64,000 nt of DNA, taken from the NCBI GenBank assembly GCA_951406725.2, contig OX597824.1, positions 77,748,001-77,812,000 on the forward strand. The letters run 5' to 3'. This stretch comes from Octopus vulgaris. Lineage: Eukaryota. The translations under genes were made by a program, and so were the position numbers. The notes below the pieces were generated by a model. It was not told the DNA's origin and did not search any database. It saw only the letters and a list, made by a program, of their open reading frames with translations. This document shows positions 5,977 through 39,252 of this stretch, piece by piece (position 1 is the first letter of the stretch; every line of letters starts with the position of its first letter).

Positions 5977-6024
5977 GTCTTACAGTTGTTTCCGGGATAT
6001 TTTATATGTCCCATCATCGGAGAC
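5977..6024 (-). ncRNA. hammerhead-like motif, second copy of the 3597 repeat (about 5920-6105, opposite strand)
   Basis: Reverse complement reads gtct-CCGATGA-t-gggacat..atatcccg-GAAA-C-AACT-G-TA-agac. Flanks are homologous to 3525-3715. Confidence 0.6.
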
Positions 6025-8478: not shown

Positions 8479-8572
8479 ATATCTTCACTGAAGAGATTGA
8501 TGCAAGACTGACCATTATTTATCCTGCCGGACATATTTTGGTTGCATCCATCGAAACATCTGTAGGACATAT
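8479..8572 (+). ncRNA. hammerhead-like motif with degenerate stem I
   Basis: CTGAAGA (8488-8494), stem II gattgatgcaa/ttgcatccatc, then GAAAC-ATCT-GTA (8553-8564). Confidence 0.55.
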
Positions 8573-12746: not shown

Positions 12747-14374
12747 CAGTTGCGGCCAAAATGTTCAGAACGGCATTGTTTTCGTCATAAAAGTAGATAT
12801 AAGTTTTTATCAAAGTTGTTTTATATTCTATAATTTTCACAGACAATAAATACAATATTATATGTTATTGTCTGAGATTTTAGTGTAAGTTGAGAGGTTA
12901 ATAAAAAAGTTATGGATGATTTAGTGATTTACTGCAAAACCCATGGCGGCCAAAATGATCAGAACGGTTGCTTTTACTCCATGTTTTAGTGTATTTAACT
13001 GTCGAACTCTAAAGTTTTGAATTTGTTTACGTGACAGTTCGTTTACTAAACATTAGTAAGAATATCTGCATTGTACTTTGTTAATATAATGCCACTTACT
13101 ACGTTACCAATTCGTCAGCAGATTATTACGCTCGAAAGAAGGATAATTTCAGTATTAGGTCTATTGCAAAGATTGTTAACAAGTCAAAAAGTGTTGCTCA
13201 CGGTATTCTTAAGGTCTACGATGATTGTGGTTCGTGTGAAGCAAGAAATTCTACAGGTAGGCCAAGAAAAACGACCAAGAGAGAAGATCGTGCTATGGTA
13301 AAGTTGGTTAAAAAGGACAGATTTAAAACTGCTGCTGCTGTTTTCGGGAAATGAGCATTGTACTGAAGAAAACTTTATCTCGAAAAACTGTGTCTCGTCC
13401 TTTAGTTGAACATGACCTAGAAGCAAGATCACCTGCAGTGAAGCCACTGATCAGCTCCAAGAATAAAAGGTGTCGTCTTACCTTTGCAACCGAACATGTG
13501 TTGTGGTCTCAAGAAAAATGGCAAACGGTGCATTTCAGTGATGAATCTAAGTCTATGTTATTTGGCTTAGATGGGAAAAGGTACGTTCGTCGAAAAGCAG
13601 GTGAAAAAGTGTCACCTAAATGCCTTAAGACTAGTGTTAAATTCGGTGGAGTGAGTGTCATGGTTTGGGGGATGATATCTGGAGATGTTGTGGGCCCTTT
13701 GCTGCGATTACATGGAAAGGTAAATGCAGGAGTTTATAAACAACTTGTAAAAGATCATGTCTTGCCTATGCTGAGAAATTCAACTAAGCGACCACCCATA
13801 TTCATGCAGGACAATGCCCCATGTCACAAGGCTAATATGGTCATGAACTTCCTCAAGTTTGAAAAGGTTATTGTTATGGATTGGCCTGCTGAAAGCCCAG
13901 ACCTCAATCCTATTGAAAATGTGTCGAATATTCTAGGAGAACGTTCGAAAGCCTGAGATCCTAAAACAACCGAGCAATTATGGAATGTCCTTCAGGAAGA
14001 ATGGAATAAGATCACCCAGCAAGAAATTGAAAATTTAATTTCCCCATGCAGTCGAAAATGTCAAACTTTGATTGAAGCTAAAGGGCTTCACGCTAAATAT
14101 GAAATAATTCCAGCATTCTCTGTCACTTTTTGATTATTTTGTTATTTTTTCAACCGTTCAGATCATTTTGGCCACCATGGGTTTTGCAGTAAATCACTAT
14201 ATCATCCATAACTTTTGTATTGTCCACTCAAATTACACCAAAATCTCAGACAATACCAATTAATATCGTATGTAATCTCTGTGAAAATTATAGAATATAA
14301 AACAACTTTAATAAAAACTTATACTTACTTTTCTGACAAAAACAATGCCGTTCTGAACATTTTGGCCGCAACTG
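12747..14374 (+). mobile_element. Tc1-family DNA transposon, full length, IR/DR type
   Basis: TIRs of ~224 bp (12747-12970 / 14151-14374) begin CAGTTGCGGCCAAAATGTTCAGAACGG and contain the inner direct repeat GCGGCCAAAATGATCAGAACGG. TA flanks both ends. Confidence 0.97.
13089..14102 (+). pseudogene. Tc1 DD34E transposase, disrupted
   Basis: Motifs FSDESK, FMQDNAPCH and WPAESPDLNPIE with 34 aa between D and E. The N-terminus is frameshifted and there is a stop at 13954-13956, after which the frame continues to ...AKGLHAKY*. Confidence 0.93.
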
Positions 14375-16963: not shown

Positions 16964-17047
16964 ACATACATACATATACATACATACATACATACATACA
17001 TACATACATACATACATACATACAAGTATGTATATATATATATGTAT

Positions 17048-17296
17048 AAGGAAAAAAAGTTAACGTAGAAAATGGTAAAATAATTTCATCATAAAAAGCA
17101 TTTTAGTACCGGTTTCAGTTATTGAGACTTCTTCAACTCTAAGTAAGGAAAAATTGTGGAAAAATTAAATTTTGGACAAATTTAATTTTTCCAAAATTTA
17201 ATTGTTTTCCATACTTAGAGTTGAAAAAATCTCAATGGTTGAAATGTTTTCTATAATAAAATTATTTTAGCATTTTCTACCTTGACTTTTTTCCTT
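17048..17296. repeat. fold-back palindrome with hammerhead-like remnant (17101-17143, minus strand)
   Basis: The arms are imperfect reverse complements. The reverse complement of the left arm reads ttagag-TTGAAGA-agt..act-GAAAC-CG-GTA-ctaaaa. Confidence 0.7.
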
Positions 17297-17747
17297 TTCA
17301 ACCCTTTACATATACACCCACACACCCACACAGATATATATATGCGTCTATTTATATGTATTCATCTATATCTATATCATTAGTATAACCATGAGCTTCT
17401 GGTAATCTGATGAGCTATCTTCATTTATTAACCTTAGTTCGATTTCTAAATATACAATTGTACTGTATAATGCATAGCATGCATATTAATAAAGGCATAT
17501 AAAATAATTCATTGTATACTGAAACTCTTATTCCATGATGAAGGCTGCGAACGGCCATAATCCCAAGGCAAACAAAGGGCTGAATGAATATTTTCACCCC
17601 TCTTACCGTCTGACATTTTATAGTTTATGTGTGTCTGTCTGTCTGTGTGTGCGTGCTTGCGTATGTTTCTGTATATATACGTGTATGCGAGCGTGTGTGT
17701 GTGTGTCTGTGCATGTATATATATATATATATTTTAAAAATATAAAA

Positions 17748-17943
17748 ATATGAAAGAATGGAGTTGAACGACGAATTAACATTTGTGCATCTTGATGTTG
17801 ACATAAGTTCCTTGCTTTTTCTGATGAGAAAGCGGCATAATATACTCCTTATTCCTTCGCAATTAGGAATATGCAGCCTTCGAAACATATGTAGAAAATA
17901 AAGGAATTTTGTTAATTCGTCGTTCAACTCCATTCTTTCATAT
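17748..17943. repeat. element bounded by a 34-bp perfect inverted repeat
   Basis: ATATGAAAGAATGGAGTTGAACGACGAATTAACA (17748-17781) has its exact reverse complement at 17910-17943. Confidence 0.95.
17808..17906 (+). ncRNA. type-I hammerhead ribozyme with canonical core
   Basis: Stem I ttcctt-gc-ttttt / gaaaa-ta-aaggaa; CTGATGA 17821-17827; stem II gaaagcggcata/tatgcagccttc; GAAA 17882-17885; palindromic stem III ACATATGT; GUA triplet with predicted cut after 17893. Confidence 0.8.
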
Positions 17944-18078
17944 ATTTATATTTAAAAAAAAACATACAAATTTCCACACGAAAGCACGTAACTTCAAACG
18001 TGTCTTCTCTGATGTGAATTTGCTACCCAGGTATCGGTTAACCGAATTATCCATAACAAGATAATTCATTCAACTACT

Positions 18079-18154
<76 letters not shown>

Positions 18155-18157
18155 GTA

Positions 18158-18400
18158 TATCTGTAATATAATATGTGGCAATTATTCGGTTGCCATAATA
18201 AAACTCCGTGTTTCGTATCTCGGGGCGGAAACCTGCACTGGCAAGTCTTCAGTTATCGAGGCAATCGAGGGAATCAAAATATGCATACTTTGGTTGCCTC
18301 GCTAACTGAAGAGATGCCGGTGCAGGTTTCCGCCCCGACATTCGAAACTCGGAGTTATATTATGGCAACCGAATAATTGTCACATATTATATTACAGATA
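18158..18400. repeat. near-perfect ~240-bp fold-back palindrome next to (TA)n
   Basis: Arms are about 18158-18268 and 18288-18400. Each carries CTGAAGA...cGAAAC on its outward-reading strand. Confidence 0.9.
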
Positions 18401-18641: not shown

Positions 18642-19013
18642 GGAAGCACTCCGTCGGTTACGACGATGAGGGTTCCGGTTGATCCGAATCAACGAAACAG
18701 CCTACTCGTGAAATTAATGTGTAAGTGGCTGAGTACTCCACAGACACGTGTACCCTTAACGTAGTTCTCGGGGATATTCAGAGAGTGACAAGGCCGGCTC
18801 TTTGAAGTACAGGTACAACAGAAATAGGAAGTAAGAGTGAGAGAAAGTTGTGGTGAAAGAGTACAGCAGGGATCACCACCACCCCCTGCCGGAGCCTCGT
18901 GGAGCTTTAAGGTGTTTTCGCTCAATAAACACTCATAACGCCCGGTCTGGGAATCGAAACCGCGATCCTACGACTGCGAGTCCGTTGCCCTAACCACTGG
19001 GCCTTTGCGCCTC

Positions 19014-25917: not shown

Positions 25918-26481
25918 CACAGACATGCAGGAAGTAAATAGACACCTTTAATTTTCTAAATTTCTGATCTAAGCGTCTTAATATGTTTTCAGCAGTGTAG
26001 AATTTACAATGTAATTATTCTTTTTCATTCCAGGTGCCATTATATTAAACATTTGCGAAGAGTAACCGTGCCACGCACAAGAAATTCAGCGGAACTGTCA
26101 GATTTTCAAAGAGGTCGTATTTTGGGGCAATCTGAGGCTGGTCTTAGCCAGCGAAAAATTGCCGAAAATTTTCAAATTCCTCTTGCTACTGTCAATAGAA
26201 TTATAGTGCAATTCAAATGCCAAGGAAAAGAATCAACAGATTCTCGTCCCGGCCGTCAAAAAGAAGCTTCGCTGTTTGAAGAGAATTGTGGAAAATGAAT
26301 CTCGTCCGAAGTCTTCGGACATTGCAATACAGCTAGAAATTAGTCCAAGAACGTGTGTTATATATCTACATAAGCTTGGGTATTATGGACGAACAGCTAG
26401 AAGAAAACATCTTCAATCAATTAATATCAAATAAAATATTTTAAAAATTAAATGTGTCTATTTACTTCCAGCATGTCATTG
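25918..26481 (+). mobile_element. internally deleted Tc1 element
   Basis: TIRs CACAGACATGCAGGAAGTAAATAGACAC / GTGTCTATTTACTTCCAGCATGTCATTG with TA flanks. It encodes a Tc1 HTH region, [12 protein letters not shown]...SQRKIA...SRPGR. Confidence 0.88.
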
Positions 26482-26623: not shown

Positions 26624-27906
26624 CAGGGTGTGGTGAATAAATCGTCGTCTAAATTATGCAAAAATGAAAATAACACTGACATCTCATTTTAACAGATATA
26701 TTTACCAAAATTACATTAAAATATCTTGAAATTCTAACGCGTAACTTTATTCAATAAAATCGCCATTGGCTTTAACTACGGCCTCCAGACGACTGCGGAA
26801 TCTCTTCCAACTCTTCTGGACGGTCTCCTTGTTTAAGTTGGTGAATGCTGCATAATCCTTGCCTGTAGTTCATCATTGGTGTTACAAGGCGTTCTGTAGG
26901 ACTCTCGCTCAACTGCGCCCCTCACATAATAATCATGGGGGATGCAGTCTGGAGAAGTAGGTAGCCAGATGTTAGGGGTGATGTGGTCGCAGAAATTATC
27001 TGACAGCCATGACTGGCTTCTTCTACGTGTGTGGCATGGTGCAGAGTTCTGTTGCTAGACATTAGGTCTTCGAACAATCATCCTCTTCACCCAGGGCAGC
27101 ACTATCTGCACCAAGCATTTGATGTAGGCCTCTCCGTTGAATGTGAGGCTGTGTGTGAAGATGAATGGAGACATAACGTCACCATCACTACTGATCACCC
27201 TAAACACTATGATGTTGACTGGATGTTTGATTTTTATCACTCTTGGTACATGTTTTGGGGATAAGGCAACCCAACGGTCAGTCTGAGTGTTCACCATCAG
27301 ACCCTGGCAGAAATTTTTCTCGTCTGAGAAAAACCAAATCATCTTCGGTTGGAGGAGATGCTTCGTAGCTGTCTTTCCGTTTGTCCTTTATGGCTTGGGC
27401 TAAAAATTGGCTCTCTCCCATCTTGTATAAGGAATACGAAATGTCTCCATGCACTACCTACCTGAGAACAAACATAGACACTCCCATATCCCTGGCGATG
27501 GACGAGATTGACTTGGAGGGATCGCTGACAATCATGGCCTGAATCTCACCAACAAATCCGGGAGTTCTTTTCTCATCAGAACGATCAGATTAAGTTTTCC
27601 GAGCTGCCGTACCTTCGTAATCACCATGGCACTCAGCTAAGTGTTTCTGAATCCTCTGCACTGTGCTCAGGTTGATACCCAAACATTCCGAAATGTTTTT
27701 GTTGGAGCTTCCGGTGCGAATGCTAAGCAGTACAGCATATCCTTTCCAAATTTCTAGCAGAGTGACTTGCGTCATGGGGCTGTTTTTCTCACAGACGGTG
27801 CTCAACTGACCCTACTATACTTTGTAATCGATAAAATCAAAAACAAGCAATGCGCATGAGCGGAATTAAAAATATAAAATGGCAACAATTTACCCATCCA
27901 ATCTGT
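26624..27906 (-). mobile_element. decayed maT (DD37D) Tc1/mariner transposon
   Basis: FFSDEKNF; QQNSAPCH (D replaced by N) followed 37 aa later by D in WLPTSPDCIPHDYYV; N-terminal HTH fragment at 27590-27805. It has stops, frameshifts and degenerate ends. Confidence 0.88.
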
Positions 27907-31865: not shown

Positions 31866-34755
31866 AGTTTCTTTATTGGCCACACAGGGCTGCACACAGA
31901 TGGGACAAGTTACAAGGTAGAGCTTTTCTTTTGGGGGATGAAAAAAACAAAAAACAAAAGAAAAAAATAATAATAATAAATAAATAAAATAAAAAATAAA
32001 AAGAATGAAAAAAAAAGAAAAGGAAAAGGAACAAAAGAAAAGAGAAATGAAAAAAGAAGAAAAAAGGGGAAAAAAGGGGAAGAGGAAAAAAAAGAACGAT
32101 CAATAGGGATCGTGTATCACAGTGTTATGATACATGGTGTAAAGGGGAAAGCAAGTAAGGTTTATCCGTGGCAAGAAAAGCCTACGAAAAAGACCACGGT
32201 AACCTTGGTCAATATTGTTATATGTTACCACATTTGTTTGCAAGTGGGTAACCCTCTGTTTTCAATTCCTGGGTTCATAGGATTATGCTCAAGGTGACTT
32301 CGTCATTCATACGTGCCATCCTTGCTACATTCACCCATCTTTTTTTAAAACATTCGCTAGACAAAACTTGCCTCTCTACTCTCACTTTCCTTTTCAAGTG
32401 GTACTTGAAGAAGTTGATGAGAGATTGACCAGAGAGGAAAGTGTTTGTCTCCAATCCTTTCAGACGCGTCCACCAGATACATTCTTTCGCCATAGCCACA
32501 AGGATGATGAAAATAGCTCTTCCGTCCCGTTTGAAGGAAGGAGGCGTGACAATATTGACAATAGACTCAGCTGATAAACCGACTCGTCCCACACGTGACA
32601 GCAGTTGTTCGACACAAGCCCAGAAGTCGTAAATTGTTGGACACTGCACGAGTGCGTGCAGAACGGTTTCGTCGCTCAGACCGCATCTCGGGCAGGTCGG
32701 CTCCGTGTTTCTCGAGCCGTGTCTGTAGAGCTTATCCCGAACGGGTAGCGCTTCTCGGTAACACTGCCAGGCCAGGGATCTCTGGAAGTTGTCCATGGGC
32801 CTTGGCCCGAAAGTCGTCCTGAACAGGGGGGTCAGGTATTCCTCGTCGACGTCCAGGTTCGCCTCGAGCTCGTCGTCGTACCTCCCCTCCACTAATCCCC
32901 TATAGAATGCTTTGGTTGTGTTGAAGTCACTCAAGGTCGACCCAGGACGGCAGGGTTGCTTGAGAGCAACGCGACACTCGCGGTGCCATTCGCCCTTCCT
33001 CGGCCTCTTTTTGATCCACGACTGCAGTTCGGTCATGGAGACGAGCTGCGAGAAAGCGTGCCTCACAGACGGCGACCACACCTGTTCACCGTCGTCTACA
33101 TAGAGCCGGAGATGTCGCAGTCTCAGCGCGTGTCTGCGCATCATCAACCACGACATGCCCAGCCCTCCTTTTAACGGGTGTTGACAGCAAATGGATCGCC
33201 TGACCATCGGGACGCATCCTTTCCACAAGAAGCGAAAGAGAATGCGTTGTAGTTTGGTGAGGGTTGGGTCGGGACAAGGTACGACGGTCAGGCGGTAGTA
33301 GATGACGGACGCGATGTACGTGTTCGCCACCTCCGCCCGACCTTTTAGGGACAGTTTCCTCTCGGCCCATTGCCGGGGGAGAGTGACCACCCTACTCGTT
33401 ATCTCGTTCCAGTTCTTCTACACTTGGAGGTCCGGACCAAACCAGACCCCGAGCAACTCAACCGGGCCGTCGGTCCAGCGTCCCACGACGGAGGCGCTGG
33501 TGGACGGCATGGGCTTGCTTCTCCAGGTGCCTAGTCGCAAGCCCACTGACTTTTCCCGGTTGATTTTCGCTCCTGTCACCGCTTCGTAGTTTTTCAGTGT
33601 CTCGCCGAACTGCTCGATGTGCTCGTGGCTAGACACTATGACGATGACTCGTCCGCGTATGCAGACACGCTCGTCCCGCATCCCAGTTCTCGCGGGATGC
33701 CCCTCAAAGTTGCCAGCTTCCGCAATAATGGCTCGAGAGACAATACGTATAGAAGCGACGAGAGGGGGCATCCCTGACGGGCCGAACGTGCGATGCCGAA
33801 GGGTCTCGATAGATGTCCATTCACGCGAATTACCGAACGGATGCCTCTGTACAAAGCGGCTATCCAGCCGCGGAAGACGGGACCGAAGCCAGCCGCTCTG
33901 AGGACCGCCTCCAAGTATCGATGGTCTACCCCATCGAAAGCTTTCGATTGATCCAAATTGATCAGCGCTCCACCCATGCCAGGTTCGTTAACTACCCTGT
34001 CTATGATGTAGCGCATCAGGTGGAGGTTGTCATCGATGGTCCGGCCTGGCACGGCGCATGTTTGCGCCTTGTCGACCAGTTTCTCGATGACAAGCGCCAA
34101 CCTCTTGGCTAGCACCTAGGCCAAAATTTTCAAGTTTGCATTAAGCAGAGTGATGGGCCTAAAGTTATCTATTACACTTCCCTTGTTTAGATCTTTCTTC
34201 AGCAGTGTTACGGCTCCTCGGCTCACAAAACCAGGAATGCTCCCGTTTTGCTGCCAGTTGCAGTACACCGCCGCCAAAAGATCTCCAAACAAGTCTGGCA
34301 TACAATTGTAAAGCTCGTAGGGTAGACCATCCAAACCCGGTGATTTGTCCCTCGAGCATTCTGCCATCGCGTCCTGCACTTCCGCCGCCGTGATGGCACC
34401 TTCACAGCACCCTGCCTTTCTTGTCGAGAGTCGTGGTAGGCTATGTAGGTAGGCACTGAAGTCTACCCTACGTTCTTGCCCTCCACTCGTCCCGAACAGA
34501 CTGAAAGGCCTCACACATTTTACTTAGCTCGAGCAATTCGCGCCCCTGTTCATCTACCAGGGACCGAATGGTGGCTTTGTTGCCCTGTTGCGCCTCTGCC
34601 ACCCGGGCCTCTCTCGCGGCTCCAACACTTTCGTTCCTCAGAGCACGCATCCTAGCTCTGACAGCACATCCTTCGTGTTTGGCGTTGAAGTGTTGGTCGA
34701 GGGCCAACCTCGCCGCCAAAACGTCGGATGTGATGCCGCTTCTAATTGCCTCTTC

Positions 34756-37922: not shown

Positions 37923-39060
37923 GGAAACTGTTGACAATGCATAGAATGCACCACCCTAAGGCAGATACAGAACGACTATATCTGCCAAGAAAGAGGGAGG
38001 CCGTGGTCTTTTGCAACTGGCAATAACAATGAAGATTGCTACAATTGGCCTAGACACCTACCTGAAAAACTCTGAGGACTGGATGCTAAAACTTGTCTCA
38101 AAACATGAAAACAAGAAAGCATCATACTCAGTCACAAAACAGGCAAAGGAATATCTAAGTGAACTCCGAATACAACCAATTTCGGAATTAGAGATAGATA
38201 TACAAGAAACAAGCACAGAAAAAGCTAGGCGCATGAAAACCCGTGCCAAAACTGCGGCCTTAGATATTCTGAATAATAAATGGCAAGAAAAACCTCTCTA
38301 TGGCAAATACCCAAAGAGAGCGAATAATGCAGATATCGACAAAGCCCTGACCCATCAATGGCTAATGGCCTCTGGCTTAAAATCTGAAACAGAGGGGTTT
38401 ATCATAGCAGCTCAAGATCAATGCCTACCAACAAGAAACTACCAGGCCAACATATTAAAGATCAGAAGCAGTCCAACGTGTCGTGTATGCAAGCAACAAA
38501 ATGAAACCATTGACCATGTGGTCTCCAAGTGCAGTCTTCTAGCGCCTACAGAGTATCTCAACAGGCACGATAGAGCTGCACAATATATTCACTGGGTAAT
38601 CTGTAAAAACCTGGATTTGCCCCATGAAAAAAACTGGTGGGAACACAAACCACCCCAGTGCTTGAAAATGACCACATCTCACTCCTCTGGAACTTCACCA
38701 TTCAAACTGACAGGAAGATAGATGCAAATAGGCCAGACATCATATTGAAAAACTTCAAACAAAGAACATGCCTCCTCATTGATATGACTGTCCCAATCGA
38801 TATAAACGTATCTGTCAAGACCTATCAAAAACTGAGCAAATATAAAGATCTTGAAATAGAAATCAGCAAAATGTGGAAGCTGAAGACTAAAACAATACCT
38901 GTTGTCATAGGTGCCCTGGGAATGATAGCAAAAGGGGCTGATAGCTACCTAACTCAGATACATGGCAGAAGTTCAAAAGATAGTGCTCATGGGAACTGCT
39001 CATATCCTACGCAAAATACTCTCTATGTAATCTCAAGGTTTAAAACAAACATAATTTTCG

Positions 39061-39091
<31 letters not shown>

Positions 39092-39252
39092 CTTTTTTTT
39101 TTTTAATTCATTAATACAACATCCCCACCCCCCAAATATATGGCACACTAGGCATAACAACAACATGAACTTCCAACCCTGTTGTCTCTTGAGGTCTCTG
39201 GGTGAGACTTGGAGCCAACTTGTACAAATATAAAGCAAAAGTCAAACATAGA
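37921..39252 (+). mobile_element. 5'-truncated R4/Dong-like non-LTR retrotransposon with restriction-like endonuclease
   Basis: RLYLPR..GGRGL, ETEGFIIAAQDQ, CRVC..ETIDHVVSKC, RHD, NRPDII..LIDMTVP, K..KY.DL and PVVIGALG; (TAA)n on both sides. Confidence 0.92.

Follow-up and report, generated by a model that had tools for sequence, protein, structure and literature searches.

A family of repeats in Octopus vulgaris carries a canonical hammerhead motif, and the copy studied here is probably a dead, 5′-truncated insertion of a Penelope-like retroelement (PLE) in a (TA)n tract, its inverted repeat likely arising from priming on two strands. The window, that is, the whole stretch of 64,000 nucleotides (64 kb) that was analysed, holds this copy at 17732-18082, with the following parts:

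17717-17731, no strand: left edge of the (TA)n tract with (TG)n before it, likely target DNA
17732-17781, minus strand: inverted 5′-truncated partner, reverse complement of 17910-17959, ending at the short 3′ end of the family; insertion-specific
17782-17959, plus strand: forward 5′-truncated copy up to the short 3′ end (pLTR-like part); other copies continue 5′ of 17782
17944-17968, plus strand: internal AT-rich polymorphic tract and short 3′ end, putative second priming site; six variable places in 17948-17959 and four joints at 17955-17957
17960-18082, plus strand: one-sided tail, family sequence (pieces 17930-18016, 17937-18019 and 17881-17974; loose ends 17984-18008)
18082-18149, no strand: (TA)n tract at the long 3′ end, common to a neighbouring inverted element

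PLE insertions are described as 5′-truncated, with an adjacent inverted 5′-truncated copy, a 30-40-bp tail at one end and a preference for (TA)n (PMC8557442; PMC3846280; PMC8969392), and head-to-head inverted pLTRs may carry an optional 31-bp tail (PMC3846280). As in EN+ PLEs, an inverted 5′-truncated copy adjoins the 5′ end at the present locus, a tail stands at one end only between two 3′ ends, and the target is (TA)n or AT-rich. A previous sequence-only reading had proposed a Penelope-related, hammerhead-bearing retro-insertion in (TA)n rather than a MITE, and the inverted copy, the one-sided tail and the (TA)n target support it. It had further taken the inverted repeat to extend stem I of the ribozyme into a long rod. 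Because the locus matches the published PLE anatomy in these three respects, we read the rod as most probably a scar left by insertion.

The motif itself was claimed to be a complete type-I hammerhead at 17808-17906, which is confirmed. It comprises:

17808-17906, plus strand: hammerhead, canonical type-I motif
17808-17820 / 17894-17906, plus strand: stem I, 5 bp, a 2x2 internal loop and 6 bp (11-bp helix I)
17821-17827, plus strand: CUGAUGA core
17828-17839 / 17870-17881, plus strand: stem II, 12 bp with 2 mismatches
17882-17885, plus strand: GAAA core
17885-17892, plus strand: helix III, 2 bp and a palindromic tetraloop; the 8-nt palindrome is ACAUAUGU
17893, plus strand: GUA site, predicted cut after this position

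The core conforms to CUGANGA, GAAA and NUH, and helices I (open), II and III follow in type-I order. Loop II is 30 nt long and contains an additional 7-bp hairpin (17850-17856 / 17865-17871). A strict type-I descriptor applied to both strands of the 64-kb window gave this single site, with a score of 20. Any descriptor match occurred in 3 of 150 dinucleotide-shuffled windows, the best scoring 16, and a score of 20 was reached in 0 of 150. Rfam made no hammerhead call on the motif at the gathering score, and none of its 17 matches at E<=10 was to a hammerhead model; below the gathering score only microRNA-type hairpins matched. The label "minimal" given to the motif does not hold, as a 2-bp helix III with a palindromic tetraloop is the canonical metazoan type (PMC4209133). 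The minimal hammerhead of metazoan PLEs is defined by the lack of helix III and loop 3, an unpaired base at the 5′ end of stem II and a short helix I (PMC4209133). This class was rejected for the present motif, in which stem II directly follows the core, helix I has 11 bp, and both helix III and its tetraloop are present. Canonical metazoan type-I hammerheads with a short palindromic helix III cut as dimers (PMC4209133).

To place the locus among its relatives, contigs from one run per organism (X1, X4, X5 and X8, one of which may be the source of the window itself) were aligned to 17732-18085 at 80% likeness, and 3499, 1248, 1305 and 533 contigs matched, respectively. Family sequence was present in 20 of 24 indexed runs (9 studies, 4 organism codes), some of them as small as 43-150 million letters; no RNA run is among the listed holders, which carries no weight for or against expression. 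Given these thousands of matching contigs in the runs of four organisms, 17732-18085 is a copy of a high-copy repeat family; contig depth gives no copy number, and summed depth was left unused. Members of the family finish in (AT)n at either of two 3′ ends, a short one at ~17951-17959 and a long one at 18082. Behind 17951, 41 X1 contigs turn into (AT)n and others run through the tail to 18085; some of this (AT)n may represent growth of a microsatellite inside the element rather than an end.

A tail of about 130 nt followed by (TA)n had been seen in the sequence. The two are indeed there, the tail being about 125 nt long and the (TA)n spanning 18082-18149; the tail lies on one side only and outside the repeat. 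It reaches ~145 nt in other copies (about 125-150 nt overall), which carry ~19 nt more near 17990, in the first tail loop, with a palindrome absent here. The predicted fold of 17960-18083 outperforms all 200 of its shuffled versions (z -3.5) and comprises a long hairpin (17967-18022) and, 15 nt from the long end, an 8-bp hairpin (18044-18067) with the A/C-rich loop CAUAACAA. In a group of 14 contigs this second stem seems to be retained, with a longer loop. A literature search on PLE tails, covering mainly the open-access part, found no tail longer than 30-40 bp, and tail length is the single feature that departs from the known kind. PLEs often keep an intron in the 5′-UTR. Inside the tail, 18008-18031 (plus strand) gives the impression of a 3′ splice site, with a branch-point-like CTGAT, a pyrimidine-rich run and CAG/G.

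In this copy the active fold of 17808-17906 is not the minimum-energy fold; a hairpin in which the core is sequestered is predicted to be more stable by ~6 kcal/mol, and this off-pathway hairpin (17814-17821 / 17826-17833) has a predicted probability of 0.9. The ribozyme of this copy is probably damaged, because U17820 favours the inactive hairpin. Position 17820 is C in 99-100% of the depth in all four runs, giving a G-C pair that closes stem I where this copy has U.G, and position 17893 is C in 76-99% of the depth in all four runs, giving a GUC cut site where this copy has GUA. With the family letters substituted, stems I and II form with a probability of 0.74-0.98 in 4 of 7 combinations, 0.36-0.46 in one and 0.02-0.03 in two. 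Helix III is weak as a monomer in every combination folded; its 8-nt palindrome is predicted to form a homodimer at -7 kcal/mol. None of the 28 listed variant rows falls in CUGAUGA, GAAA, C17886, G17891 or U17892, an absence that is not significant alone (p ~0.14, for 12 core letters and 14 variable places in 99 letters). Among one-sided family variants, C17820, G17896, G17831, T17834 and T17877 keep or restore pairs; C17816 and T17832 break a pair or sit in loops. A check of copies, ends and covariation, which had been suggested for the element, yields a high-copy repeat with a short and a long (AT)n end and no two-sided change, the variant listing being one that does not link positions and in which only one-sided changes are visible. 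Taken together, the GUC site, the G-C closure of stem I, the pair-keeping variants, the folds with family letters and the canonical dimer-cutting form make it likely, as judged from sequence, that the family carries a selected ribozyme. Such a GUC-type ribozyme would cut its RNA as a dimer via the palindromic helix III.

The absence of an associated ORF, noted earlier, stands in so far as no PLE domain was recognised in the four frames over the element that were scanned. It says nothing on the source element, because the family runs on 5′ of 17782 and this copy is 5′-truncated. These four frames, part of a scan of 150 out of 375 filtered ORFs in the window, matched no protein family; in the same ORF set Pfam gave no PLE domain, with LINE reverse transcriptase, zf-RVT and Tc1 pieces instead. 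The frame through the motif had 0 hits among 1.84 billion representative proteins and 0 among longer proteins, and family variants show no third-position bias in it; for these reasons it is not taken as coding. The 30 nt before 17782, which are all of the 5′ extension seen, are open in one frame and read GLRVSSHLKV. This peptide may resemble the C-terminus of a PLE endonuclease. Against the PLE alignment in the PMC8557442 supplement it has just a three-residue likeness to PoseidonFr, which does not amount to a test. The 5′ extension motif is absent from the 64-kb window at up to 3 mismatches. A metagenome scan with a 19-mer bearing this copy's minority cut-site letter gave at least 11 loci, all of them chance 19-21-mers without an upstream core; viral contigs and prokaryote genomes gave 0 matches each, and ARAGORN found nothing.

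These data bear on the nature of the source. It might be a dedicated non-autonomous element of a few hundred bases, either a non-LTR retrozyme or a solo pLTR unit, that borrows a PLE protein, in which case the locus would still be a truncated head-to-head insertion; we regard such a source as possible and rather doubtful. It would retain the non-autonomous element of the previous reading, less the inverted repeat as a component of the unit. It would suit the high copy number, the long structured tail and the failure to recover an ORF. The canonical type-I motif is of a kind found mostly in retrozymes (PMC7229834), yet autonomous PLEs of the Hydra clade can carry canonical hammerheads too (PMC8557442 File S2). 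Retrozymes are commonly found as monomeric copies, and they have been argued to be pLTR derivatives (both 10.64898/2026.07.22.740005). Against a retrozyme, the locus is not a tandem repeat, and no joint leads from the tail end back into the unit, whose start may lie outside the aligned stretch. The open frame before 17782, with its possible likeness to an endonuclease C-terminus, would likewise speak against one. A PLE is the more probable source, judged from the anatomy of the insertion.

The two arms and their junctions inform on how the insertion arose. A perfect inverted repeat of exactly 34 bp (17748-17781 / 17910-17943) is confirmed, with a rough chance expectation near 1e-12 for such a perfect 34-mer complement in the window, and it extends to 50 bp at 94% (17732-17781 / 17910-17959). 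It does not directly prolong stem I as had been thought, since its left arm is separated from the stem by 26 nt (17782-17807) and its right arm by 3 nt. Nor do the data support the view that it belongs to the element and surrounds the ribozyme, as in other copies the left arm is missing there and the inversions have different breakpoints. Before 17782, 15 X1 contigs continue in a 30-nt consensus unlike the left arm; among the pieces listed (32 of 6624), none starts left of 17782, and four of the five that start at 17782 carry 22-70 further letters there. Six opposite-strand joints were found in other copies (17782/17955, 17788/17956, 17830/17901, 17832/17955, 17846/17957 and 17849/18008), each in one contig per run, with 17830/17901 in two runs; the value 17782 may merely mark where the aligned stretch leaves family sequence. 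One 17777/17906 skip in family contigs also reads as a head-to-head pair. The joint table carries no orientation, so the four joints at 17955-17957 can be read either as inverted tail-only partners or as short-ended copies inside older ones, both being PLE behaviours. Among the breakpoints of this copy and of the family contigs, four lie within 17901-17914, where stem I ends on its 3′ side (8-21 nt downstream of the predicted cut), and four within 17830-17849; the numbers are too small for a test. Loose ends were taken from the 24 listed of 286.

We propose a putative model for this insertion, in which the order of priming is inferred. Initially, a PLE endonuclease would nick both strands of the TA tract. 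One 3′-OH would then prime at the long end (18082) and copy the tail, the arm and the hammerhead up to 17782, and the other would prime at the short end (~17951-17959) and copy only 50 nt, up to 17910. Finally, the two cDNA ends would be joined head to head without visible microhomology. In the anole, purified PLE protein can cleave AT-rich DNA on both strands and extend each of them; reverse transcription begins within the RNA, at two sites of an AC-rich stem loop, the tail being the sequence between them, and the hammerhead is dispensable for insertion in vitro (PMC11167929). Alternatively, the inverted arm may have been made from a single nascent strand, through fold-back self-priming or a template switch, an account that differs from two-strand priming in mechanism only and that we hold to be unlikely. 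Self-priming has been proposed for PLE head-to-head repeats (PMC3846280), and the identity of the arms over 34 bp, including the family-polymorphic position 17916, suits a single template. However, the 17781/17782 junction shows no palindrome and no microhomology, the arm ends at the short end of the family, and the purified anole protein PAc extends both strands (PMC11167929). A MITE-like DNA element, or a fixed fold-back RNA unit with both arms conserved and the hammerhead in a rod, would explain the perfect 34-bp arms and the TA flanks but is largely refuted and very improbable, as the family continues past 17782 in sequence other than the left arm, breakpoints vary, and the tail, external to the repeat, is present at a single side.

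Beyond two-strand priming, the source could be a PLE lineage, or a non-coding ribozyme element mobilised by a PLE, in which the two reverse transcription start sites are 125-150 nt apart. The structured tail between them, with its A/C-loop hairpin and self-complementary motifs, might then bring two RNAs together, so that one dimer would both activate the hammerhead and feed two-strand cDNA synthesis. We give this extension little credence. If it were true, thousands of junctions would form a natural map of PLE priming and of reverse transcriptase stops against the ribozyme.

Two other head-to-head pairs lie next to the locus:

18158-18264 / 18294-18400, both strands: second head-to-head pair, 107-nt inverted repeat at 92%, in the same TA tract
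17029-17316: third, older head-to-head pair at ~77%, with a decayed minimal-type hammerhead at 17136 (minus strand), helix III ACCGGU

The second pair is another head-to-head truncated insertion in the same TA tract. It bears a hammerhead-like core on each strand (CUGAAGA at 18306, plus, and 18252, minus), with helix III ACUC-G-GAGU and U at the cut site, and in these cores helix III takes the form that File S2 of PMC8557442 gives for PLEs of the Hydra clade. Elsewhere in the window, a hammerhead-like motif at 8489-8565 (plus strand) has CUGAAGA, an 11-bp stem II, GAAAC-AUCU-GUA and a decayed stem I, and lies between microsatellites. Another at 12691-12610 (minus strand) has one core change, a very long stem II and a palindromic helix III, ACGGCCGU; it stands ~50 nt from (TA)n, and its 5′ side adjoins an apparent Tc1-type transposon end. 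Two weaker hammerhead-like matches, at 6020 and 4011 (both minus), come from a relaxed scan without a chance control. The window also contains Tc1/mariner transposase fragments (13327-13953, 25960-26295 and 27593-27811), two broken LINE ORFs with RVT_1 and zf-RVT (32278-34523 and 37960-39230) and a SINE-like repeat (18643-18960), which may resemble octopus tRNA-derived SINEs.

In summary, the locus is ordinary genomic debris of a known kind, and it warns that fold-back stubs of this sort end up annotated as MITEs. How PLEs integrate is still not well understood, and the family is of modest value in this respect: being high-copy, with two far-apart 3′ ends, a structured tail and a canonical hammerhead, it makes the anole model of two start sites testable on many natural junctions. 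PLEs make up 6.83% of the Octopus vulgaris genome (PMC13282606 supplement); the available main text of that report makes no mention of hammerheads, and the family motifs were not found in the supplement, where motifs split by line ends escape. A hammerhead is known in a cephalopod genome from Hydra-1_Obim (PMC8557442), and the giant squid genome has 235 Rfam hammerhead hits (PMC6962438). The motif of Hydra-1_Obim differs from the present one, and five family motifs were absent from the available PMC8557442 supplement or matched unrelated sequence there, again with motifs split by line ends escaping.

Compared with canonical metazoan type-I hammerheads (PMC4209133; HHR_Amex2 and the invertebrate motifs in PMC7229834), the octopus motif shares the intact core, the G10.1-C11.1 pair, the 2-bp helix III with palindromic tetraloop, the helix I internal loop and, in the family, the GUC site. 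It differs in a helix II of 12 bp with a 30-nt hairpin-bearing loop, far longer than the canonical 4 bp. Animal non-LTR retrozymes (PMC7229834; 10.64898/2026.07.22.740005) are likewise small, AT-rich and high-copy and carry a canonical type-I hammerhead, as does this locus with no ORF; in contrast, the octopus locus is not tandem and is 5′-truncated with an inverted partner. With EN+ PLEs (Penelope/Poseidon, Neptune and Hydra; PMC8557442, PMC3846280, PMC11167929) it shares a sense-strand hammerhead 140-270 nt from the 3′ end, a head-to-head inverted truncated partner, two 3′ ends, a one-sided tail and a (TA)n target, whereas no ORF was found at the locus and the tail of the octopus family, about 125-145 nt and structured, is 3-4x the published 30-40 bp.
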